From a virus, in IMG/VR virus record IMGVR_UViG_3300045988_159892, positions 1-36,017 of that record: 36,017 nt of DNA; one strand, written 5' to 3'. Below, piece by piece: positions 507 through 36,017 of the stretch. Each line of letters begins with the position of its first letter. The first letter of the stretch is position 1. The translations under genes and the position numbers were made by a program. Below the pieces are notes generated by a model that saw only the letters and a list, made by a program, of their open reading frames with translations, had not been told where the DNA came from and made no database searches.

Positions 507-538
507 TTGCACAATGTAAATAAACTTCATTATCTTTG
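507..538 (+). promoter_or_regulatory. Bacteroidota-type promoter for the integrase
   Basis: -33 TTG within TTGCACAATGT (507-517), a 21-nt spacer, then -7 box TAtcTTTG (531-538). The ATG is at 557. Confidence 0.6.
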
Positions 539-556
539 CCATACATCTTTAGATAT

Positions 557-1906
557 ATGGCTACTGTTTATTTTTCCTTGTCGAGGAAAGAATCTGCTGC
601 GACACCAGGACTGCACGAGATTCTCGTGCGCTTTTGTCATGGACGCATCAACCTGCGGGCAAAGTCGGGCATATTCGTAAGGTCTGAATATTGGGACGAA
701 AGATTACAGCAAGTTGTTATTCCGAGATTCCGCATCATGTCGGCAGAACAACGTGCCGCAATAGAGGAGCTGTCCTGCACGCAGAATAACCTGCAAGAGT
801 TGCAGGCTTCCATCATGTCAGAGTTTATAAACGCCGGATCAGGAAAGGTGCCTTTGCATAAGAATTGGCTTTCAGACGTAGTAATATCTATCATGCGTCG
901 CCGGCTAAATCTTTCCAATAGCGCAAAAAGCAAGTTCTTCGAGGCGTGGGATAGATTTATAGAGAGTAAACAGGTAAGCGCCCGACGCAAAGCTATGTTC
1001 AAGGTGGTGCGCAACATGATGTGGCGATATGAGCGTGTTGAAAGAATGCGCAATCCATCATTCTACTTATCTTTTGATGCCATGACAAATCGCACGTTAT
1101 TGTACTTTGAACGTTTCTTATTGGAAGAAGTAGAATATGTGGATCAGTATCCGCAAATATATAAGAATGTTCCCGATAGAGACTTACCAAAGCACCGAGG
1201 GCCTAATACCATATCGCATCGTATGGCGATTTTGCGGACGTTCATAATTTGGGCGATTGACAATGAACTGACAACAAACGATCCATTTAAAAAATACAGC
1301 ATAAAAGCTCCTGTTTACGGCACACCTATTTATATAACTATATCGGAGCGCAACACCTTATACCATGCACCTATGCCATCAAAAAGGTTGCAGGTGGTGC
1401 GCGATATATTTGTATTCCAATGTTTGATTGGTTGCCGTGTCGGAGATCTGTTGAAGTTAAAGAGACAAAATATCATGCGCGGAGCTATTGAGTACATTCC
1501 GCATAAAACAAAAGACGGTCGCCCAGAAACAGTGCGAGTTCCGTTGAACGATACGGCAAAGGAGATAATAGCCAGATATGACGATGCCGACAGGGAAGCG
1601 CTATTACCATTTATATCTGCACAGAAGTATAACGATTATATAAAGGAGTGTTTCAAAATTGCTGGACTTGATAGATATGTTACTGTACTTAACACTCAGA
1701 CAAGAGAGTCAGAACAGAAACATTTGTATGAAGTCGCCTCGTCCCATATGGGCCGCCGAACATTTGTCGGGAACTTATACAAACAGGTAAAGGACCCTAA
1801 TCTGGTCGGGGCCTTATCAGGGCATAAGGAAGGCAGCAAAGCTTTTGCCCGCTACCGCGATATTGACGAGGAGATGAAAGTTGACCTTGTAAAACTACTC
1901 GAATAG
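557..1906 (+). CDS. int: Tyrosine-type site-specific integrase
   Basis: The ORF track starts at TTG 536. ATG 557 (MATVYFSL...) fits the promoter better. C-terminal catalytic motifs: LIGCRVGDL (Arg), SHMGRRTF (H-x-x-R), GHKEGSKAFARY (His/Tyr). Confidence 0.92.
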   Translation: MATVYFSLSRKESAATPGLHEILVRFCHGRINLRAKSGIFVRSEYWDERLQQVVIPRFRIMSAEQRAAIEELSCTQNNLQELQASIMSEFINAGSGKVPLHKNWLSDVVISIMRRRLNLSNSAKSKFFEAWDRFIESKQVSARRKAMFKVVRNMMWRYERVERMRNPSFYLSFDAMTNRTLLYFERFLLEEVEYVDQYPQIYKNVPDRDLPKHRGPNTISHRMAILRTFIIWAIDNELTTNDPFKKYSIKAPVYGTPIYITISERNTLYHAPMPSKRLQVVRDIFVFQCLIGCRVGDLLKLKRQNIMRGAIEYIPHKTKDGRPETVRVPLNDTAKEIIARYDDADREALLPFISAQKYNDYIKECFKIAGLDRYVTVLNTQTRESEQKHLYEVASSHMGRRTFVGNLYKQVKDPNLVGALSGHKEGSKAFARYRDIDEEMKVDLVKLLE

Positions 1907-22120: not shown

Positions 22121-22412
22121 CATCCGGAACGGCCCCTACATAGTCGAATATACACATTGCGGCGTGTGATGCTTCGTGCGCAACAATAGAATAACTCCGT
22201 GCAGCTTTCTTCGATTCAAAGCGTATCAAAATACCGCCTTTCTTCGATATTTTGTCGTATGCCTCAATGACATCTGCGTCTGTGGTTTCGTCCATGTCCG
22301 GGATATTGTCAAACCGGTCAGATATGGCCGCCCCCTTCTTCTCTCCGATAACCACCCACAACAACCTCGGGTATATTTGCGGGTCGAACTGATGTATGAT
22401 CGTTCTACTCAC
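22044..22412 (-). CDS. Small HExxH (zinc metallopeptidase-like) protein, 122 aa
   Basis: Motif VAHEASHAAM. GTG start overlaps the MuF-like stop by 8 nt; the first in-frame ATG is only at codon 40. Confidence 0.6.
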   Translation of the reverse strand: MSRTIIHQFDPQIYPRLLWVVIGEKKGAAISDRFDNIPDMDETTDADVIEAYDKISKKGGILIRFESKKAARSYSIVAHEASHAAMCIFDYVGAVPDVKNQEPFSYLVGWISGCVCEAARAD

Positions 22413-23487
22413 GGCTCGAGGTATGGATGTAGGTTTTATTTTCGCTGATCCAGTATGGCTGCGTTCCTTTCTTTGCCGCAGCGTTGATTCTGCCTTTGTT
22501 GCCCTCTACCCACTTTTGCAGACCCTTTGGCAACTCTTTGACTTCATTCTGCGGATTATCCCACCAGTCGGTACCAGTACCTTCGTTTGCGAGGATAGGC
22601 ACGGCATAGCACCGGCAGTTCGGGTGCCAGCCGATAAACTTGAAATCCTTGGGATATTTCCCCTCCATGGCGTCGCATATCTCCAGCGGAGCGCGCCCTT
22701 TCTTGAATCGGGGATACCAAAACTTGGCCAGCCATTTGGCGTGCGCCTTGGAGGTCTTGACCTCATAGCCAACAATGAAGTCCAGCTGCTGCCATCGGAT
22801 ATAATCGGCCTCCATGTATGCCGAATTGATCTCCGTGCGGGCCATACGCATGGCATTCTGATACGACGACCGATATACGCCTTGCCCGGGGTGATACGAC
22901 ATGCCCTTTTTCGACAACACCTTTTCGCCAAAAGCGTTGCGCACCTTACGAAACAACTTATCCGGATCATTAAGGTATGCCCTCACGTCTTGGCTGATCT
23001 TTGCCGCGCTGCGACCCTCGCTGATGCCAACAGATAGCGACAGCTCGACCTGCTGCTGAAACTGCCGCGTGATATTCCACACGCGCCCCGAGAGCGTATG
23101 CCCGTATGTTGTCCGTTTGGCAAAAGCATCCAGCGCATCGAGGTTGTGCAGCAGGTAGCCGTCTTTTGGGTTGGAGAAAAGTTCCTTGACCCACGAATCT
23201 ACCTTTTCGTTGGCAAAGGCCCATTCGGAGGCGATGCCAGCGCTTACTATTGTCTTGAGGCGATCTTTGAATGCCGAAAGCATGGCGGACGCATTTTCTT
23301 GACGGGCCTTGTTGCTTGCGAAAGAGAACAAATCATCGTCTTGGGCAGAGTAGCCGTATTGCATCCCCATCTGCACCAAATCGCGTGTATAAGCCTCGTA
23401 CAACGCATCAATTTCCGATAGATATTCGTCTATGTGCGCGTTGTGTTTTTGCAGCCATTCACTCGATTGATGATTGAATCTGGGCAT
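22405..23487 (-). CDS. Head morphogenesis protein, SPP1 gp7 / Mu F-like
   Basis: Motif GWHPNCRCY is typical of the Mu F family. Positioned directly after the portal. Confidence 0.85.
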   Translation of the reverse strand: MPRFNHQSSEWLQKHNAHIDEYLSEIDALYEAYTRDLVQMGMQYGYSAQDDDLFSFASNKARQENASAMLSAFKDRLKTIVSAGIASEWAFANEKVDSWVKELFSNPKDGYLLHNLDALDAFAKRTTYGHTLSGRVWNITRQFQQQVELSLSVGISEGRSAAKISQDVRAYLNDPDKLFRKVRNAFGEKVLSKKGMSYHPGQGVYRSSYQNAMRMARTEINSAYMEADYIRWQQLDFIVGYEVKTSKAHAKWLAKFWYPRFKKGRAPLEICDAMEGKYPKDFKFIGWHPNCRCYAVPILANEGTGTDWWDNPQNEVKELPKGLQKWVEGNKGRINAAAKKGTQPYWISENKTYIHTSSRE

Positions 23488-26693: not shown

Positions 26694-27413
26694 TTATTCC
26701 ACTCGTTCTACCATGTCGGCAAACATCTCTCCAGGGATGACTTTTTCGTCGGGTGAGAATCCGAATCGAAGCATGAATGCCGATTTTGCCCGATAGGATT
26801 TGAAGTTCAGCATCACGTAAGATTCAATGTCTCCAACCTTCTGCTCGGATTGTTGACGAATCTGCTCTTTCATCTGCTTTACGGCCGCTTTTCGTTCTTC
26901 ATACGGTCGTTGTATCTCCTCGAAATCATCCACGATGGATGCTGCACTGGCACTCACTTCGTCCTGCATGATGGATATGCCATAGATATTCATATCTGCC
27001 TCTGAGAGCCCGGCTGCTTCGTAATCGATACCTGGTACCAGTATTTTCATCTTCTCCATATCAAACTCTCCCATGGCGGAAGGGGAATTCATGAAGATGT
27101 TTTGCTCGCGTTCGGTCTTATCGTCCAATTCAACGGCCTCGACCTTGATGTCGTAATCTGTTGCGGGTGTCCCGTCATAGCCGTTGATGATGTCAAGTGT
27201 TTGTATTCTCTTGTGTCCGGATACGAGATAAGACGAGAGACGGTTCCACACGATACCACCCAGGAAGCCCACCGTTTTGAAGTTCTTTTTGAGTTTTCGG
27301 ACTACCTCGGGATCCTCTTTTCGGGGATTGTATGGTGCAAAGCTGATTTGCGAGCGCCGAATAACAACGGTCTCACTTTGCTTGTATTTGGTTTGCTGCT
27401 TTTTCTGCGTCAT
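26694..27413 (-). CDS. ParB/Srx-fold N-terminal domain protein (IbrB / DndB-like class)
   Basis: Motifs FAPYNPRK and SGHKRIQ resemble the ParB-like nuclease domain signature. The C-terminal half is acidic and helical. Confidence 0.7.
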   Translation of the reverse strand: MTQKKQQTKYKQSETVVIRRSQISFAPYNPRKEDPEVVRKLKKNFKTVGFLGGIVWNRLSSYLVSGHKRIQTLDIINGYDGTPATDYDIKVEAVELDDKTEREQNIFMNSPSAMGEFDMEKMKILVPGIDYEAAGLSEADMNIYGISIMQDEVSASAASIVDDFEEIQRPYEERKAAVKQMKEQIRQQSEQKVGDIESYVMLNFKSYRAKSAFMLRFGFSPDEKVIPGEMFADMVERVE

Positions 27414-27468: not shown

Positions 27469-28068
27469 TTAGGGATAATGCTGGCGGAGAAAGTCGAACA
27501 CCTCCGGCGAAAACGTCAGACCTTGCGATTTGTTTTTGTTGTAGGATATGGGCTCCGGCAGTTTCCTTGCTTTGATGTAGGCCATTACGTCCGCCTTCTT
27601 CCATTTTGATAGAGGATAGACTTTTCCTGTGTGGCTTATGGCTTCGTTTTCGTATCCGCGCAACATAAGACAACGATTCATGCCGTCCGACTGTTTCATA
27701 CCGTAGAAAGAATATGGAATGCCGGTCTTCATGCGGACCAATTCATCAACATCTTTCAATGACAGCAGCTTTATGTTGGGATTGGGGATACAATATAGCC
27801 CACAGCGCAGAACGCGCGTCAGCGTCCAATGGGGTATCTGCATGATGCGCACGTTCGAATAACGGGTTTTGACCGCCCGCAGGTAATTGTCGATATGGTC
27901 CAATCCTTTAACGAAGTACATGAACACGCAAACGACTTCTTTGAAGTGCGGCGCCATAAGATCAAGTAGTACCTCGCTGTCTTTGCCGCAAGAATAAAAA
28001 AGGATTGCCCTGTCCGTTTTTTGACGGACAGAGGCAATCACTTCGTTTGCATGGTCTATCGGGGTCAT
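27469..28068 (-). CDS. PAPS-reductase-family PP-loop ATPase (IbrA / DndC-like class)
   Basis: PP-loop SCGKDS near the N-terminus (FYSCGKDSEVLLDL), with size and layout of phage PAPS-reductase-like proteins. Confidence 0.75.
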   Translation of the reverse strand: MTPIDHANEVIASVRQKTDRAILFYSCGKDSEVLLDLMAPHFKEVVCVFMYFVKGLDHIDNYLRAVKTRYSNVRIMQIPHWTLTRVLRCGLYCIPNPNIKLLSLKDVDELVRMKTGIPYSFYGMKQSDGMNRCLMLRGYENEAISHTGKVYPLSKWKKADVMAYIKARKLPEPISYNKNKSQGLTFSPEVFDFLRQHYP

Positions 28069-28514: not shown

Positions 28515-28922
28515 TTAACAATTTATTTTCTCGATTACTTTACCGAGGTGGTAGTCTATCTCGGTCATGGTGTATTCGTTGCCGTTGTATTCGTACACGA
28601 TCGGCTCGTTGGTCTCTTCGTCGCATACGTCGATCAACTCGGCACCTTTGACCTCGACCAATGCACCGGGGCGATTCTTTTCGTAACCTACCCAGAACTG
28701 TATGGCGTCGTAGTGATTAATGATTGTATCGACGCCTTTGTTACTGTCCCATGCTGATTCGGGCACGTCGCTGTCTTTCTTATAGACCTTGCCTGTATTG
28801 TTGTCTCGATACGAAATGTATTTAGTGTTGGTAGGTCGAACCTCGCGCGTTTCGACTGTCTTTTCGCCCGACAAAATCGCATCGAACCATTTCTGTTTGA
28901 TGATGAGAGTTAATACTTTCAT
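28515..28922 (-). CDS. ASCH-domain protein
   Basis: N-terminal MKVLTLIIKQKWFDAILSGEKTVETRE matches the ASCH signature (K..W...I..G.K..E.R). Confidence 0.75.
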   Translation of the reverse strand: MKVLTLIIKQKWFDAILSGEKTVETREVRPTNTKYISYRDNNTGKVYKKDSDVPESAWDSNKGVDTIINHYDAIQFWVGYEKNRPGALVEVKGAELIDVCDEETNEPIVYEYNGNEYTMTEIDYHLGKVIEKINC

Positions 28923-28938
28923 AATCTTTTAATTTTAG

Positions 28939-29011
28939 TAGCGGGGACAAGATTCGAACTTGTGATCTGCTGGGACACTAACCCGCCGTGTTACCATTGC
29001 ACCACCCCGCA
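28939..29011 (-). tRNA. Phage-encoded tRNA with non-canonical features; anticodon loop UUAGUGU (AGU, Thr, if read canonically)
   Basis: Reverse complement folds as a cloverleaf: U8, A14, GG in the D loop, A21, T arm ACAAG-UUCGAAU-CUUGU and a 5-nt variable loop. Odd features: U1.U72 mismatch, C13.A22, an extra A in the 3' strand of the anticodon stem (GCGGG / CCC-A-GC), and no encoded CCA. Confidence 0.65.
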
Positions 29012-29187: not shown

Positions 29188-29508
29188 CTACATTATTTCA
29201 AGATTCAGTCGCTTGAAGCACCGCCACTCGTTCTTCTCGGTGTCGAAATACACCTGAACGGTGTCGTTCTTCTTGCGGGTGTCGTTGTCCTTTATTGAAG
29301 GCACGAGGTCAGTGCGCAGCGTGCCCCACGCCTCACGCAGGGTGCCGTCCACCTTGCGAAAGTAGAACCGCACTACCTCGGTGTGCATACGGCGCATGAG
29401 ATTGAAATTGCGCCAGGCAAGTTTTAGGCACTCGGCAAAGGCCCGGCGGGTTGTATAGTAAAATCGCCACGCCATACGCATGATGTTTGAAAGATCGGTT
29501 GTTTTCAT
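29188..29508 (-). CDS. DUF2693-like small protein
   Basis: Motif FYFRKVDGTLREAWGTL is typical of a family common on Bacteroidales mobile elements (recalled, not searched). Confidence 0.6.
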   Translation of the reverse strand: MKTTDLSNIMRMAWRFYYTTRRAFAECLKLAWRNFNLMRRMHTEVVRFYFRKVDGTLREAWGTLRTDLVPSIKDNDTRKKNDTVQVYFDTEKNEWRCFKRLNLEIM

Positions 29509-29792
29509 AGCGGTAAATCGTATTTCAAACCTAAATCGTTAGAATAAAGATTATCAAAATCATAATCTGAAATTCGCCTCGTCTTGTCAAGGTATATCTC
29601 TAAACCTCGCGTATATGATGAATGATATGAAACGACAACCCGTTGTTTTTCTGTAAGGTCTTCTTCTATATGCCTTCTGTAAAATCTGTGGTCTTTGGTA
29701 ACATACTTTATCGCCTCTTCGATCAACTCGTTCAACTCATCACCCACCAATCGAGGGGCATGAAACTTGTTTTCTTCAAAAAACTTCGTCAT
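29505..29792 (-). CDS. Hypothetical protein (95 aa)
   Basis: ATG ORF. Its stop overlaps the next start as ATGA. Confidence 0.55.
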   Translation of the reverse strand: MTKFFEENKFHAPRLVGDELNELIEEAIKYVTKDHRFYRRHIEEDLTEKQRVVVSYHSSYTRGLEIYLDKTRRISDYDFDNLYSNDLGLKYDLPL

Positions 29793-29806
29793 GGTCGTAT
29801 CGTTTG

Positions 29807-30085
29807 TTAGTTCAACATTTCTTGCAGAAACTCGGCAGCTTCTTTGTCCTCTTCGCCATCATTATTAAGAACCGCTTCAACGGTTGCGGTTTCGCTTTCG
29901 ATATACCGTAAAGGAGCTGTCCAATACGTGCCAGGATCTTCACCAATTTCTGCTTCATAATTAATGTAAGCCGTGAAATTATCTGTAGCAACTTCGAAAG
30001 AATCTTTTTGACCGTTCAATCTGGTAATATAGTCAGCTGCAAGTCTGGCAAGGTTCAGCAGCTCGTTATTGATTTCTGTTGTCAT
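29807..30085 (-). CDS. Strongly acidic small protein (92 aa; 20 D/E vs 5 K/R)
   Basis: Composition counted from the translation. Located in the early operon. Confidence 0.55.
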   Translation of the reverse strand: MTTEINNELLNLARLAADYITRLNGQKDSFEVATDNFTAYINYEAEIGEDPGTYWTAPLRYIESETATVEAVLNNDGEEDKEAAEFLQEMLN

Positions 30086-30097
30086 GGTTATTTTGAT

Positions 30098-30619
30098 TTA
30101 ATACTTTGACAAAAAACTATTATTAGAATAAAAGCACCCATTATACTCAATGAATTGGCCGAAAGTTCGTAATTCGCCATCTTGATTAAGAAATGCGAAT
30201 TTTGATCGGCCAATCATTGTTTTTATCAAAGCGTCGAATTCTTTCGAGTAAAACCCATATTCTTTTATTGTAGACACAAAATAGAATCTGAAAGCCGTCT
30301 CGCTGTCAGTCATGTCATTAAAAGGTGTGACATTCAGAATACCGTTATGAGCGAATGATATACCTGTAGTCTCGTCTCTAAAAGGGTGACAATTCGCTGT
30401 GCAAATAGACCCATGTGTAGCATATCTAAAGTGAATAATTGCAGGTTCGTCTATTGATACAATAGAGGCATATTTTACAAAGGTATTAAACCTCAAAGTC
30501 TTATATATTTTTGACATTGTCGCTATGCCACAACCGTCTGGGTTAACCGTAGCACATTGCTTTAGTAAAGCAATGTGCGGCATCGGTACACCTTTAGGCT
30601 TGATTATTAAAATACACAT
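30098..30619 (-). CDS. Class-II glutamine amidotransferase-like Ntn hydrolase (N-terminal Cys)
   Basis: I set the start at ATG 30617-30619, giving MCILIIKPKG (Cys2 as nucleophile). Motifs HFRYATHGS, NCHPF and FAHNGIL. Confidence 0.75.
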   Translation of the reverse strand: MCILIIKPKGVPMPHIALLKQCATVNPDGCGIATMSKIYKTLRFNTFVKYASIVSIDEPAIIHFRYATHGSICTANCHPFRDETTGISFAHNGILNVTPFNDMTDSETAFRFYFVSTIKEYGFYSKEFDALIKTMIGRSKFAFLNQDGELRTFGQFIEYNGCFYSNNSFLSKY

Positions 30620-30623
30620 ATAA

Positions 30624-31523
30624 TTATTCGTTAAATAAATTTTTACGATCATTGAAGAATTTCTTTTGCGAGGCCGTTAAAAACGGCAATTCGTCTATTG
30701 TAGTAGCTGTAATCAATTCAGTATTATTAAGAGAATGATTTATCAATGCGCTTAAGAATTTGACCCATTGATTTATTTTTTCAAAATTGGTCGTGCCTTG
30801 ATGCTGCCTGAACTCAATTGTCTTATGATTAACAAAAGACATGATATTCAACTTATAATATCGATCGCTATTGAATATCTGAATCAAGTCATTGAAACTC
30901 GTGATATTAGCATCTTTAATATTGCGTGCTATATTTATGATAGATTTACAGTACCTATTATTATTAGCACGTCGACTTTGTGGCATAAATGAATCTATAA
31001 TAGGCTCAATAATAGCATAATTGACTATTATACGCTGCCATTGTTTTATGGTGAATGATTCTGCCCCGAAATGAACGTGCAGGCCACATGATCTATTAAC
31101 ACGGGCTTCGTTGTCATTCAATACCTTGCAAACCTTTTTCAAGGTATTCAAACTTCTTAAAATAGGTGAAACGACTTCGCATGAATTGTAACCGTCGATC
31201 GAACCGTCTGACCCTAATTTATATGCCTTTTTCTGATCGTTATGATTATACCCGGTCACTATAGACTGAATGCCATATTCAGACAAAGCAGTGCTAATAA
31301 GATTCTTGTCTATATTATAGCATTCTATCTCAATACCTAATGTAAAACGTCGATGATTGTCTTTTGCCGCAATCTGTTCACCCTCTACATATTGTACAAG
31401 AGTATAATATTTATTCGCATCGTAACGCGAACACTTTAAATCTTTGACTAATTTGTTAATCTTTTCAGCTTTAGTAGCGTTACTTAAGACGATCGCGCGA
31501 ACTTCTGTAAAAAAATCTGACAT
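30624..31523 (-). CDS. Amidoligase_2-like (GCS2/glutamine-synthetase-fold) enzyme
   Basis: Motifs GIEIEC, GSDGSI, CEVVSP, CGLHVHFG and TIEFRQHQGT. I set the start at ATG 31521-31523 (MSDFFTEV), not the GTG 31556 in the track. Its stop lies 4 nt before the GATase-like ATG. Confidence 0.75.
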   Translation of the reverse strand: MSDFFTEVRAIVLSNATKAEKINKLVKDLKCSRYDANKYYTLVQYVEGEQIAAKDNHRRFTLGIEIECYNIDKNLISTALSEYGIQSIVTGYNHNDQKKAYKLGSDGSIDGYNSCEVVSPILRSLNTLKKVCKVLNDNEARVNRSCGLHVHFGAESFTIKQWQRIIVNYAIIEPIIDSFMPQSRRANNNRYCKSIINIARNIKDANITSFNDLIQIFNSDRYYKLNIMSFVNHKTIEFRQHQGTTNFEKINQWVKFLSALINHSLNNTELITATTIDELPFLTASQKKFFNDRKNLFNE

Positions 31524-31560
31524 AGTAGTAATATTTAATTGTTGTTTTGATTTCACGACG

Positions 31561-31592
31561 CAAATGTAAATGTTATTTTGATTTTATGCAAA
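31561..31592 (-). promoter_or_regulatory. Early-left promoter
   Basis: Minus strand: TTTG (31592-31589), 20-nt spacer, TAcaTTTG (31568-31561). The ATG is at 31523. Confidence 0.6.
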
Positions 31593-31628
31593 TTTTTCAG
31601 CAAAAAAATTTAATTGTCGTTGAAATAT

Positions 31629-31659
31629 TTTGTCTGTAATATAAATGTGACTATATTTG
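31629..31659 (+). promoter_or_regulatory. Promoter for the HTH cassette
   Basis: TTTG (31629-31632), 19-nt spacer, TAtaTTTG (31652-31659). The ATG is at 31680. TGTAAATG occurs at 31564-31571 and 31664-31671. Confidence 0.6.
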
Positions 31660-31679
31660 CGGGTGTAAATGACACATAA

Positions 31680-31928
31680 ATGCGAGTTAAAGAAATTCTA
31701 AAAGAAAGAGGTATAACCGCAAAAGAGCTTGCGGCTAAAATAGGCATGACCGAAACGGGATTGAGTATCGCGATAAGCGAAAAGGGTAATCCGCCATTGA
31801 AAAGATTACAGGATATCGCTGCGGCATTGAATGTCAGCGTCGCCGAACTGTTCGAGCCGCAGGATGCATCGCAACCTACAGGCCGATGCCCGCATTGCGG
31901 GAAGCTAATTAAAATAAAGATAGAATAA
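31680..31928 (+). CDS. XRE/Cro-type HTH protein with a C-terminal CxxC zinc-ribbon-like tail
   Basis: ITAKELAAKIGMTETGLSIAISEKGNPPLKRLQDIAAALNVSVAELF is a classic HTH_3 pattern. C-terminal CPHCG. Confidence 0.85.
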   Translation: MRVKEILKERGITAKELAAKIGMTETGLSIAISEKGNPPLKRLQDIAAALNVSVAELFEPQDASQPTGRCPHCGKLIKIKIE

Positions 31929-32267: not shown

Positions 32268-32306
32268 AAAGGCCGGGGATTGCTCCTCGGCCTTTCGGGT
32301 TTTATT
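32268..32306. terminator. Bidirectional intrinsic terminator between convergent cassettes
   Basis: 11-bp stem 32268-32278 / 32285-32295 (one G.U) with a 6-nt loop. T-rich on the plus side (TTTCGGGTTTTATT) and A-rich upstream, which reads TTTTTTATTTATT on the minus strand. Confidence 0.75.
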
Positions 32307-32322
32307 ATGTAATGGGTGAATG

Positions 32323-32814
32323 TTACCAGTTTTGGAATCTATACGTTCCTGTTTCTTCAAAGCTCTTTATCACAAAAACCTTTTTTTCGGTTTCCCCTTG
32401 ATAATCTGAATTGACTTGAATCGTTTTATACGATGAATAGAATACGGAATAAGTATTATACGTTACCCACAGAATATACGATCCATTTTTTACGTTTTCC
32501 AACGTAAAAACGCCCGGCAAATATCCCGTCTGATATTCAGGCTCTGCAACTGTTCCGTCAGAATAGGTTATTTTGCCATCCGATACAACCGAAGATTTAC
32601 TTTTTTCGGCATCAACTGTTTTTCCGATATTTTCAAATAAGCATACGCAAGCCTTGTCAGCTAACTGTTCTTGCTCCAACTCACCCGTAAAATAATTTTC
32701 GTATTGAGTATATACTTGAACAAAAAAGGTTTGTTGCTCCGACTCTTCGTCTTTTTCGCATCCGTAAAATATAAGAGCCGATGTGGCTATTGCCAAAAGT
32801 AGAATCTTTTTCAT
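32323..32814 (-). CDS. Lipoprotein, predicted surface-exposed (163 aa)
   Basis: Signal peptide MKKILLLAIATSALIFYG followed by Cys19, then the acidic stretch EKDEESEQ resembling the Bacteroidota lipoprotein export signal. Its ATG lies 2 nt after the nuclease stop. Confidence 0.75.
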   Translation of the reverse strand: MKKILLLAIATSALIFYGCEKDEESEQQTFFVQVYTQYENYFTGELEQEQLADKACVCLFENIGKTVDAEKSKSSVVSDGKITYSDGTVAEPEYQTGYLPGVFTLENVKNGSYILWVTYNTYSVFYSSYKTIQVNSDYQGETEKKVFVIKSFEETGTYRFQNW

Positions 32815-32816
32815 CC

Positions 32817-33878
32817 CTATTTTATATAAAATTTGACGACCGAGATAAGTTGCTCGGATAACTTATATATGTCATTGAACGATTCGATTAAGTGCTTTGT
32901 CCCCACCTTGTTTTCATCGAACGTCTCGACATACTTTTTTGATCCGTTGAAGTGTAGCCGACATATCGGCTTCCTGTTATTGTCATCAAACAGAATCGCG
33001 AAATAACTTTGCGCGTCCCTGCTTACGATCCGGTTAAGGTCTACGACATTGCAAAGAATAGCCCGAACGATATAAAATCCCTGGATTTCGTCCTCTGTTG
33101 TTACGATCTTGCTTTCGTCCGCCTCTTCGACAGGTTCCGATTCCTTGCTTGGGCCTACGGCCGGAATATCGGGCGTAATTGCCGACTTTAACCGATCATT
33201 CACGTAGTCGTTTGTGTATAACTGAAAGGCCCGTTGAATCATGGGACGGAAGTCGTCCATCACATTGCGCGTAACGCTGCCGGAATATACCTGCTTGGTG
33301 ATGAACTTCACAAAGTCATCCGTAGGTTCCATGCTTTGGGCAACGATATAGGATCGGATGGCGTTCGTGTATTTCATCTCCGTGGCCGAGTTGAGTATGA
33401 CGGTAGTATCATACTGGCTTCGGCAAAACTGCTTTAACTTGTCTATGTGGCTATCCTTCAGGTCAAGCAAATTGATCTCGAAAAACGGTCTTTCATCCAT
33501 CTTGTTCGGCTCGTCGAGGTCAGCAAAGAATTTGTAGACGATTCCGTTGGTCAAAACGCCGAACTTCGCCTTTGAGACATGGTAATAGCGGAACAGCTGG
33601 GCTTGGTACTTGTCCAAATCCGCCGACCAGTGCTTGCATTCGATCAACATGATCGGATTGCCGTTGAGAAATACCGTGTAATCTATCTTCTCGCCCTTTT
33701 TGATGCCGTAGTCGCAATCACATTCGGGTGTTACCTCGGTAGGGTTAAAAATATCATATCCAAGCGTTTGGATGAAAGGTAAGACAAAAGATGTCTTTGT
33801 TGCCTCCTCTGTTTTGATGTTGTCCTTCATCTTTGCAACCTTGTCGGACAGTAGCTTGATTGAATCTTTGAAGTCCAT
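32817..33878 (-). CDS. PD-(D/E)xK nuclease-fold protein of the HsdR N-terminal-like type, with an uncharacterised C-terminal domain (353 aa)
   Basis: EEATKTSFVLPFIQTLGYD, IDYTVF...PIMLIECK and GVLTNG match the HSDR_N-type restriction-endonuclease-like core. No helicase, methylase or specificity partner in the window. Confidence 0.7.
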   Translation of the reverse strand: MDFKDSIKLLSDKVAKMKDNIKTEEATKTSFVLPFIQTLGYDIFNPTEVTPECDCDYGIKKGEKIDYTVFLNGNPIMLIECKHWSADLDKYQAQLFRYYHVSKAKFGVLTNGIVYKFFADLDEPNKMDERPFFEINLLDLKDSHIDKLKQFCRSQYDTTVILNSATEMKYTNAIRSYIVAQSMEPTDDFVKFITKQVYSGSVTRNVMDDFRPMIQRAFQLYTNDYVNDRLKSAITPDIPAVGPSKESEPVEEADESKIVTTEDEIQGFYIVRAILCNVVDLNRIVSRDAQSYFAILFDDNNRKPICRLHFNGSKKYVETFDENKVGTKHLIESFNDIYKLSEQLISVVKFYIK

Positions 33879-33890
33879 ATCGTATAAGTT

Positions 33891-34577
33891 TTACATTATA
33901 TTCCGCTTGATTACCCCCGTTACCCGAAACAGCCTTTTAACATCTTCGAGCGGTATTTCAAACTCGGGATAAAAATATTTCCCCTCGCGAGGCCCGTTTT
34001 CGTGCTTCATGTGGTTGTCGCTGATGCAGCTAAAGGCTGTTTTGTTCTCGTTGTAATATAGCCTTTTGAGAAATCGGTTCTCGGCTGTCTCGATCACATA
34101 AACGGTTCCAGGTTCGATGAAATTTTCGGTATATCTCCGTAATCCAATCACGCACCCGGCAGGATAGTTTGGAACCATTGAATTTCCATATACGCGCATC
34201 GCAAACTCGCTATCTTTTAATATCCCGCCGATCTCTATCCACCCTGCCGGTGCCGCAGGTGTCATCTCCATGCCATATTGTGTTCCGGCGGCTACCTCAG
34301 CGTCAAAGTATGGAATAACTTTCCCGGAGCTTATCTCCTGCGACGCACTGCTTTCTTCGCCAGATTGAGCCTCTTTGAGCATATTGCCTTCTCCAGTAAG
34401 AAGCCATGCAATGTTTAAGTCAGGGTATGTAGCCTTTATTCGTTCTACATATTCAGGTCCTATTCCTTTGCTGATACTATTCACGAATGAACTTGACGCG
34501 CCAATCCCAAGAGCAAAAGACCTTCTGCTTATTCTTTTATGGTCTATAAATTCTATAAGCCTTTCCTTAACTCCCAT
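33891..34577 (-). CDS. CI/LexA-like repressor (N-terminal HTH plus S24 peptidase domain)
   Basis: I set the start at ATG 34575-34577 (MGVKERLIEFIDHKRISRRSF), not the TTG 34604 in the track. S24 motifs: VYGNSMVPNYPAG (Ser) and FLKRL (Lys). Confidence 0.85.
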   Translation of the reverse strand: MGVKERLIEFIDHKRISRRSFALGIGASSSFVNSISKGIGPEYVERIKATYPDLNIAWLLTGEGNMLKEAQSGEESSASQEISSGKVIPYFDAEVAAGTQYGMEMTPAAPAGWIEIGGILKDSEFAMRVYGNSMVPNYPAGCVIGLRRYTENFIEPGTVYVIETAENRFLKRLYYNENKTAFSCISDNHMKHENGPREGKYFYPEFEIPLEDVKRLFRVTGVIKRNIM

Positions 34578-34607
34578 ATCGTCAATTAGTTTATAGAAAT
34601 TCAATTA

Positions 34608-35613: not shown

Positions 35614-36017
35614 ATGAATACGAATTACGAAAAGATCAAGTCCGACCTTCTGGCCTTTGGAAAGAGGAACGGCGCCTGCGCAGGGCAGTATCAGCGGCTC
35701 TACAAAGCGGAGAGCATCGAGGATGTGATCGCCGTTGTCAAGGATAATTTTGTGTGGTGCGCCAAGTACCGAGACTTCGCCGACGTGATTATGGCTAACC
35801 GCGAGCAGTTCGCCGAGCATCAGATATGGGCCAACCAAGACGTCAAGATTCAAGAAGGCATTGGTTATCTCCTGGCCACAGAGGGAGAGATCAACGCCGA
35901 GAGCTGGGGCACCTCGACGATCAACGCTACGAGCAGAGATGCCTCGACGATCAACGCCGAGAGCTGGGGCACCTCGACGATCAACGCCGAGAGCTGGGGC
36001 ACCTCGACGATCAACGC
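35614..36017 (+). CDS. Partial ORF (runs off the window) with 10-aa tandem repeats INAESWGTST
   Basis: ATG at 35614 with no stop to the window end (my own translation: MNTNYEKIKSDLLAFGKRNGACAGQYQRLYK...EINAESWGTSTINATSRDASTINAESWGTST...). Absent from the ORF track because it is open-ended. Confidence 0.7.
   Translation, partial: MNTNYEKIKSDLLAFGKRNGACAGQYQRLYKAESIEDVIAVVKDNFVWCAKYRDFADVIMANREQFAEHQIWANQDVKIQEGIGYLLATEGEINAESWGTSTINATSRDASTINAESWGTSTINAESWGTSTIN
35890..36017 (+). repeat. 30-bp in-frame tandem repeat, at least 4.3 copies
   Basis: The unit ATCAACGCCGAGAGCTGGGGCACCTCGACG is identical at 35890, 35950 and 35980, with a partial copy at 36010. The copy at 35920 is diverged. Confidence 0.95.

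Follow-up and report, generated by a model that had tools for sequence, protein, structure and literature searches.

Amidoligase_2 genes belong to the more widespread phage enzyme genes that have no known role; they are found in phages of Bacteroidales, Firmicutes, Actinobacteria, and Proteobacteria, in crAss-like viruses, and in one giant virus. The locus described here raises the question of what such a ligase does beside a small hydrolase. It lies in the window, that is, the whole 36,017-nucleotide (nt) stretch of the IMG/VR virus record IMGVR_UViG_3300045988_159892, which belongs to a temperate siphophage from human-gut metagenomes; the same region was present on four independent contigs. 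On the minus strand at 30098-31523, an Amidoligase_2 ligase gene is followed by a gene for a short stand-alone class-II glutamine amidotransferase (GATase)-like protein, hereafter the GAT-like protein. A preliminary description placed the two genes at the head of an early operon and suggested that they modify a nucleic acid, a protein, or a metabolite during infection. In our best model, to which we give an even chance, the pair is a mobile accessory cassette of a γ-glutamyl-amine ligase and a cysteine N-terminal nucleophile (Ntn) amidohydrolase.

The ligase and its GAT-like neighbor

The ligase has more than 1,600 homolog clusters and the GAT-like protein more than 1,000. Relatives were found by an alignment-based scan of viral contigs and by tblastn. 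Viral contigs, genomes, and phage records together yielded 171 loci, which were reduced to 107 ligase lineages at 90% identity. A megablast search of 50,697 phage records with the pair as query gave no match, nor did a viral-contig scan with a single-protein query. Hosts of the subfamily in the genome scans were Alistipes, Prevotella, Bacteroides, Parabacteroides, Muribaculaceae, Hymenobacter, and relatives.

The ligase gene (30624-31523, minus strand) encodes 299 aa from an ATG at 31523. A profile hidden Markov model search confirmed the family named in the preliminary description, with matches to PF12224 Amidoligase_2 (E 2.3e-35, 123.1 bits against a cut-off of 22; ligase residues 60-260 on profile positions 3-244 of 245) and to phrog_2443 'amidoligase enzyme' (8e-46). 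The catalytic domain spans residues ~60-299, and a three-helix extension specific to the lineage makes up residues 1-55. The idea that this extension is a fused copy of the ~77-aa partner protein described below was rejected, as no similarity was found. The AlphaFold2 model of the ligase (predicted local distance difference test score, pLDDT, 87.3) had YbdK as its best Foldseek match in the PDB (1r8g; E 7e-5, probability 1.0, template modeling (TM) score 0.41), followed by glutamine synthetases (GS), glutamate-cysteine ligase (GCL), and PafA (probability 1.0-0.7, TM ~0.4). Comparison with viral Amidoligase models gave TM scores of 0.66-0.69. The ligase profile matched no chain among the PDB sequences even at E<=10; hence, the mapping of the active site rests on conserved motifs and fold. 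The metal/ATP-binding Glu and His residues to which the preliminary description had pointed are conserved: E65, E67, E116, H149, H151, E237, and R239 are invariant in 31 ligase sequences. By analogy, they would make up the ExE, E, HxH, and ExR metal/ATP set expected for the GS/GCS2 fold; their match to the GS metal ligands is assumed from what is established for GS rather than from superposed structures. The ligase is predicted to be a GS/GCS2-fold carboxylate-amine ligase with an intact active site.

The GAT-like gene (30098-30619, minus strand) encodes a protein of 173 aa in total that starts with Met-Cys and has no fused synthase domain. Its match to GATase_4 was marginal and covered residues 59-130 only (E 1.3e-6, 28.0 bits against a cut-off of 23), and its score for GATase_6 was under the cut-off of that model. 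The AlphaFold2 model (pLDDT 92.3) had the GlmS glutaminase domain among its top Foldseek matches (1xff; E 1.8e-5, TM 0.69), then PurF and AsnB, and an Ntn αββα fold is predicted. Marginal as the GATase_4 match is, the predicted fold supports the earlier assignment as class-II GATase-like. A profile of 35 homologs aligned the motifs RxATxG, NxHPF (NCHPF in the protein), HNG, and TDSE with the YafJ-like structure 1te5. In an hhalign comparison with the GlmS N-terminal domain, R65, T68, N92, and G93 fell on R73, T76, N98, and G99, and the Asp of TDSE, D105, was equated with GlmS D123 by motif only. The Glu/Gln-binding and oxyanion residues are invariant in the 35 sequences. The N-terminal Cys expected from the preliminary description is conserved in all 34 lineages with a short GAT-like protein, each of which has the Met-Cys start, and the longer or fused homologs that were aligned also start with MC.

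The starts of both genes were set by comparison with homologs. In the list of open reading frames (ORFs), the longest ligase ORF is 30624-31556 with a GTG start. This GTG lies 5 nt 3' of the promoter motif at 31561-31592, approximately at the expected transcription start, and the aligned ligase homologs have an N-terminus of M-x-x-F-F throughout, with M1 and F5 invariant. For these two reasons, the ligase gene was taken as 30624-31523. The longest second ORF is 30098-30652; all full-length homologs begin at the internal Met-Cys at 30619. The junction reads TAA (30626-30624), TTAT, ATG (30619-30617), which leaves a 4-nt gap. Thus, the two ORFs on the minus strand, their sizes of 299 and 173 aa, and their 4-nt spacing are as first described, and all of the motifs quoted at that time (GIEIEC, CEVVSP, CGLHVHFG, and TIEFRQHQGT; HFRYATHGS, NCHPF, and AHNGIL) were found in the translations. 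Judged from sequence, neither protein has a signal peptide, and both are predicted to be cytoplasmic.

Partners of the ligase and the bond they may share

The partner genes of the ligase were compared across the 107 lineages. A short GAT-like gene (167-189 aa) lies 3' of the ligase in 34, and a long GATase_6-type protein is the partner in 13, so that 47 lineages have a GAT-II-like partner. The gamma-glutamylamine cyclotransferase GGACT/AIG2 (PF06094, 1e-9) is the partner in 12 and a Peptidase_C26/class-I GATase in 1. No ligase has both a GAT-like and a GGACT gene as separate neighbors, and the short Met-Cys GAT-like domain is fused to GGACT in two phages, C75C1, in which the fusion gene lies 0.85 kb 3' of an amidoligase, and a spring-water podovirus. 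The fusion genes (L173:3501-4397 and L174:3001-4218) are annotated merely as 'gamma-glutamyl cyclotransferase'. In Bacillus phages, the amidoligase is paired with an annotated gamma-glutamyl cyclotransferase. To our knowledge, GATase_4 proteins of the EgtC type, C26 proteins of the PuuD type, and GGACT have unrelated folds, and their characterized members all cleave gamma-glutamyl amides. The simplest reading is that a gamma-glutamyl amide is made by the ligase and removed by its partner.

The mechanism we propose is as follows. The ligase would bind ATP-Mg through ExE, E, HxH, and ExR and phosphorylate a carboxylate, most likely the gamma-carboxylate of L-glutamate by analogy with the characterized members of the fold; those known to us (YbdK, GS, GCL, and PafA) all activate this carboxylate. 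Coupling of the activated carboxylate to an amine would yield an N-(gamma-glutamyl) amide. In the GAT-like protein, removal of Met would bare the Cys1 nucleophile, R65, T68, and D105 may hold a free Glu/Gln moiety, and N92-G93 would form the oxyanion hole, so that the gamma-amide could be hydrolyzed to glutamate and the amine. The net effect would be to write and erase, or to protect and deprotect, the gamma-glutamylation of a cytoplasmic amine, for which a polyamine, another small amine, or a protein lysine are candidates. We also considered a bolder version, which we regard as doubtful: the cassette reversibly gamma-glutamylates a host amine, either a polyamine or a host-protein lysine, on behalf of phages and conjugative elements, and the hydrolase, cyclotransferase, or C26 protein resets or tunes the mark.

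The same two proteins could also act as a split glutamine-dependent amidotransferase, in which the GAT-like protein frees ammonia and the ligase makes a carboxamide, comparable to MurT/GatD or AsnB; possible carboxylates are those on a cell-wall precursor, a metabolite, or a protein. GS uses ammonia as its nucleophile, as is well established, the glutaminase set is intact (Cys1, R65, T68, N92-G93, and D105), and the nearest structures of the GAT-like protein are the true glutaminase domains of GlmS, PurF, and AsnB. The best Pfam and PDB sequence matches, however, are stand-alone YafJ/EgtC-type GATase_4 proteins and not synthase-linked domains. The 4-nt gap, together with overlaps between the two genes in the closest relatives, suggests stoichiometric co-production, but this coupling is not conserved: of the 29 lineages measured, only 9 have a gap of at most 6 nt or an overlap, the gaps have a median of ~28 nt, and in 3 lineages another gene is inserted between the two. 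As for the partners, the single lineage with a class-I GATase would fit an ammonia supply, whereas GGACT, which is unable to supply ammonia, replaces the GAT-like protein in 12 lineages and is fused to it in 2 phages. We know of no GS-fold glutamine-dependent amidotransferase, which also counts against this alternative. Taken together, an amidotransferase is unlikely.

Several observations weigh against a γ-glutamyl-amine ligase and amidohydrolase. A ligase and a hydrolase for one bond in one operon look futile unless a regulator or some further step comes in between. The partner classes do not discriminate fully, as class-I and class-II GATases would suit ammonia supply equally well. The fusion proteins and the mycobacteriophage partner lack the TDSE Asp (D105). 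A conserved ~77-aa protein is the only partner in 26 lineages and no partner was detectable in 22; because ORFs were called by a crude greedy selection of the longest ORF, counts of lineages with no partner are upper bounds. Glutamate as the acyl donor rests on analogy, since the fold match of the ligase is moderate (TM ~0.4), and the full-text literature search found no biochemical data for any Amidoligase_2 member.

The ~77-aa protein bears on a further alternative, Pup-like tagging. A protein of ~75-80 aa directly follows the ligase, often with a 4-nt overlap, in 28 of the 107 lineages, all without a GAT-like partner (L120:8708-8935, also L109, L116, L130, L134, L142, and others); it has no Pfam match and no homolog in the window. 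In Bacteroides, ligase relatives with this partner are carried by conjugative elements beside ParA, DUF3408, and TraG genes. In a tagging system comparable to Dop-PafA, the ligase would join a peptide via its terminal Glu to lysines, and the Cys hydrolase would mature the tag (Gln to Glu) or remove it. Peptide-tagging roles were reportedly predicted for related ligase-peptidase systems by Iyer et al. in 2009. PafA is among the fold matches of the ligase, and relatives that lack a GAT-like partner are tightly coupled to the conserved ~77-aa protein. However, no conserved small protein accompanies the GAT-type cassette, and the 77-aa family ends in varied non-acidic residues. The 92-aa and 95-aa ORFs next to the pair in the window are restricted to their lineage, and their last residues are Asn and Leu instead of Gln or Glu. 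Furthermore, R65, T68, and D105 would imply recognition of a Glu with free alpha-amino and alpha-carboxyl groups and not of a peptide C-terminus. We consider Pup-like tagging highly improbable.

Position, promoter, and mobility of the cassette

The position of the pair varies among collinear phages. In 14 lineages, it precedes the ASCH-PAPS-ParB-terminase genes, as in the window (PAPS, 3'-phosphoadenosine 5'-phosphosulfate). In 7 lineages, the ASCH, PAPS, and ParB genes remain ahead of the terminase, and the pair is found between the portal or MuF gene on one side and the scaffold and capsid genes on the other. In 1 lineage, the pair and the packaging genes have opposite orientations. In L096 and L097, the counterpart of the MuF gene of the window (22405-23487) is absent, and the ligase-GAT cassette occupies its place after the portal gene.

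Divergent from the ligase, an XRE/Cro-type helix-turn-helix (HTH) protein of 82 aa is encoded at 31680-31928 (plus strand; HTH_3, 1e-11). At least 20 of the 34 short-GAT lineages have a homolog of it directly 5' of the pair and on the opposite strand, among them L107, L015, and L140, in which the pair lies after the portal gene. Since it accompanies the cassette to these sites, its identity as a phage Cro protein was rejected, and it is likely the own regulator of the cassette. The variable position and the accompanying HTH gene together argue for a mobile cassette of two or three genes.

Upstream of the ligase, a Bacteroidota-type promoter motif (TTTG, 20-nt spacer, TAcaTTTG) was found at 31561-31592 (minus strand), ~37 nt 5' of the ATG, and a divergent motif of the same type for the HTH gene was found by the pattern search at 31629-31659 (plus strand). 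The pattern searched was TTTG-N17-23-TAnnTTTG. It occurred 5 times in the window against 0.85 expected, a number reached in none of 100 shuffles, and 3 of the matches are at expected sites, namely 5' of the ligase, the HTH gene, and CI. The two -7 elements of the divergent promoters form an inverted repeat, I1. A search for operator repeats in 31524-31679 showed that only these two elements pair, with nothing else convincing. This promoter region (156 nt) has 24% GC. The ligase and GAT-like genes have a GC content of 0.34-0.36 and a GC content at third codon positions (GC3) of 0.33, compared with a GC3 of 0.55-0.71 in core phage genes. With the two small ORFs that follow, they form a low-GC island at 29505-31523 (GC 0.34-0.41, GC3 0.33-0.38). 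The pair is a horizontally acquired low-GC island with its own Bacteroidota-type promoter. We propose that, in temperate siphophages of Bacteroidales, the cassette would behave as an autonomous moron that is transcribed from its own promoter and probably controlled by the divergent XRE protein.

The genes around the pair bear on its reported place in an early-left operon. Leftward, the order is ligase, GAT-like, two small ORFs, WYL_2, tRNA-Thr(AGT), ASCH, PAPS-reductase-like, ParB-like, TerS, TerL, and portal, and beyond the portal come MuF-like, capsid, tail, and later genes. The two small ORFs (29505-30085, minus strand, GC 0.37-0.41) directly 3' of the pair encode an acidic protein of 92 aa and a protein of 95 aa. 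They have no Pfam or PHROG matches and are present only in the near-identical loci L005-L008; as they are not conserved in relatives, they are probably outside the conserved pair. The WYL_2 gene (PF10902; 29188-29508, minus strand) and the ASCH-like gene (28515-28922, minus strand) match the function-less PHROGs phrog_1086 and phrog_625, and tRNA-Thr, with anticodon AGT (28938-29011, minus strand), lies between them inside the leftward string. The WYL_2 and ASCH-like proteins recur by the cassette and by the PAPS-ParB pair in many Bacteroidales phages. The PAPS-reductase/PP-loop gene is at 27469-28068 and the ParB-like gene at 26694-27413 (phrog_620, 2e-15). At 22405-23487 (minus strand), a MuF/SPP1 gp7-like head-morphogenesis protein of 360 aa is encoded, of which only the MuF part matches the PHROG 'Bxa ADP-ribosyl transferase'.

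To the right of the HTH gene, a 110-aa ORF is followed by a strong bidirectional terminator hairpin at 32268-32295, with a 12-bp stem and 7 GC pairs. This terminator divides the HTH/110-aa unit from a convergent, co-oriented operon at 32323-34604 (minus strand) for a CI-like S24 repressor, a 353-aa HSDR_N-domain protein, and a 163-aa lipoprotein. The HSDR_N protein and the lipoprotein beside CI are probably morons that are expressed during lysogeny. At 35889-36017, a tandem repeat with a 30-nt unit (4.3 copies, 83% matches) runs off the right end of the window and may represent iterons or a repeat within a gene.

The preliminary description was right to call the pair promoter-proximal, as a promoter motif lies directly 5' of the ligase, and to list ParB-like, PP-loop, ASCH, and tRNA genes near it. 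The early-left operon itself was not supported. The CI operon is separate and ends at the 32268-32295 hairpin, a promoter of its own precedes the pair, and the genes 3' of the pair are the ASCH, PAPS, ParB, TerS, TerL, portal, and capsid genes and not those of a lambda-like early operon. Likewise, the comparison of gene neighborhoods upheld the adjacency of the two genes but not their tie to the ParB, PAPS, and ASCH genes. In 8 related lineages the pair is uncoupled from these genes; hence, the adjacency of the ParB, PP-loop, ASCH, and tRNA genes is a matter of synteny and not of a shared system.

This uncoupling also argues against nucleic-acid hypermodification, in which the pair, alone or with the ParB-like, PAPS/PP-loop, and ASCH genes, would alter phage DNA or host RNA early in infection, for example through an attachment to a base with an amino group, which would shield the DNA from restriction. 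The neighbors do share the strand of the pair in the window, and several unrelated phages have a ParB-like or ParB-methylase gene no more than a few kb from the ligase. Amidoligase and amidotransferase genes have moreover been identified with Pfam in viral thymidine-hypermodification clusters, with no role assigned (Lee et al., 2021; PMC8989533). Those clusters differ in having 5-HMUDK, aGPT-Pplase, dUMP hydroxymethylase, or TET/JBP genes. None of these defining thymidine genes, nor the deazaguanine genes DpdA/QueC, was detected with Pfam in the 42 ORFs of the window or in the 4.6-kb right flank of L005-L007, for which precomputed Pfam hits were used. In addition, the phage is temperate, a prophage that carries an integrase (536-1906, plus strand) at the far end of the window and a CI-like repressor, and the exocyclic amines of bases would be expected to be poor nucleophiles for acyl-phosphates. 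Hypermodification is very unlikely. Of the earlier proposal, the ligation and removal of an amide is still the best reading of the chemistry, and the modification of nucleic acid, which had been deduced from the neighbors, was not supported.

A last alternative, which we consider at least as improbable as hypermodification, is that the two genes are auxiliary metabolic genes that, in infected or lysogenic cells, would raise the nitrogen, glutamine, or gamma-glutamyl-peptide metabolism of the host. Planctomycetes and Pseudomonas phages with an amidoligase, a GATase, a glutathione-synthase-like gene, and a GGCT gene have been interpreted in this way, as carriers of nitrogen-metabolism genes (PMC10945688), but that interpretation is based on annotation alone. 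The PHROGs class of the neighboring PAPS reductase is also 'moron, auxiliary metabolic gene'. However, the Pfam scans of the window and flank revealed no linked transporter or pathway genes, and the occurrence of Amidoligase_2 genes on conjugative elements and in strictly lytic phages of many phyla, with swappable partners, is a pattern more typical of conflict genes than of genes that supplement a host pathway.

Because ligase relatives ride on lytic phages, prophages, and conjugative elements, we favor host manipulation or inter-element conflict, which is more likely than a role in virion assembly, core metabolism, or the supplementation of a host pathway. Neither protein matched the defense models of PADLOC-DB v2 at E<=0.01.

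Comparison with known systems

The pairing of an Amidoligase_2 gene with a GAT-like gene is already known from many phages. The cassette occurs on prophages of culturable gut bacteria such as Bacteroides, Parabacteroides, and Alistipes. With a minimum of two enzymes, its own promoter, a probable regulator, and culturable hosts, it offers a clean system for finding the substrate. The partner swaps and fusions narrow the field to gamma-glutamyl amides. Should the target prove to be a polyamine or a protein of the host, a new covalent modification would be added to phage-host interactions, as an unrecognized chemistry of takeover or counter-defense. If the chemistry belongs to ordinary metabolism, many 'amidoligase' annotations could receive proper names.

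Iyer, Abhiman, Burroughs, and Aravind reportedly described in 2009, by computation, Amidoligase_2 genes beside a GAT-like thiol peptidase or an AIG2 cyclotransferase. A passage in PMC11318856 cites Iyer et al. (2009) for the ligase-peptidase pairing. The full-text literature search found no experimental function for the pairing, in agreement with the preliminary description, which stated that it had been noted computationally and had no demonstrated substrate. The Bacteroidales version shares with those systems the ligase family, the GAT-II-like neighbor, and the alternative AIG2/GGACT partner elsewhere. It differs in its minimal 173-aa GAT-like protein, the 55-aa helical extension of the ligase, the divergent XRE regulator, and its shifts of position within one phage lineage.

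Annotated pairs are also found in isolated phages, namely LUZ24-like Pseudomonas phages (tf and UFV-P2), Arthrobacter phage Ottawa (gp65/gp66), and Mycobacterium phages Marvin and Tesla (gp108/gp109). In these, too, a GAT-II-like gene lies after or near Amidoligase_2 on the same strand. However, their GATase partners are longer (299-486 aa) and of the GATase_6/7 type, extra ATP-grasp or COOH-NH2 ligase genes are often present, the hosts are Proteobacteria or Actinobacteria, and the ligases share ~16-35% identity with that of the window where measured. Tesla gp108 (L172:1558-2919), annotated as 'glutamine amidotransferase domain protein', has an Amidoligase_2 fold with a weak Pfam match, and the real GAT-like gene is gp109. 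A GAT-ligase fusion in this phage was rejected, as there are two adjacent genes, the first of which is mis-annotated.

Among cellular enzymes, GlmS, PurF, and AsnB resemble the GAT-like protein in the Ntn fold, the N-terminal Cys, and the RxATxG and HNG motifs. They differ in carrying a synthase domain, and the GAT-like protein, at 173 aa, falls ~65 residues short of the 238-aa GlmS glutaminase domain, with a target-normalized TM score of 0.53.

The closest parallels in chemistry are EgtA/EgtC and PuuA/PuuD, in each of which an ATP-dependent GS/GCL-fold gamma-glutamyl ligase is joined by a GATase-type amidohydrolase that later removes the glutamyl handle. EgtC is a class-II enzyme and PuuD a class-I/C26 enzyme, and GATase_4 is the family of both EgtC and YafJ. 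The phage cassette has the same combination of a ligase with a probable gamma-glutamyl amidohydrolase. The Egt and Puu enzymes, however, belong to cellular multi-enzyme pathways, the former for ergothioneine and the latter for putrescine utilization, in which other chemistry takes place between ligation and hydrolysis, whereas the cassette consists of two enzymes only, is phage-borne, and has no close sequence relationship to either.

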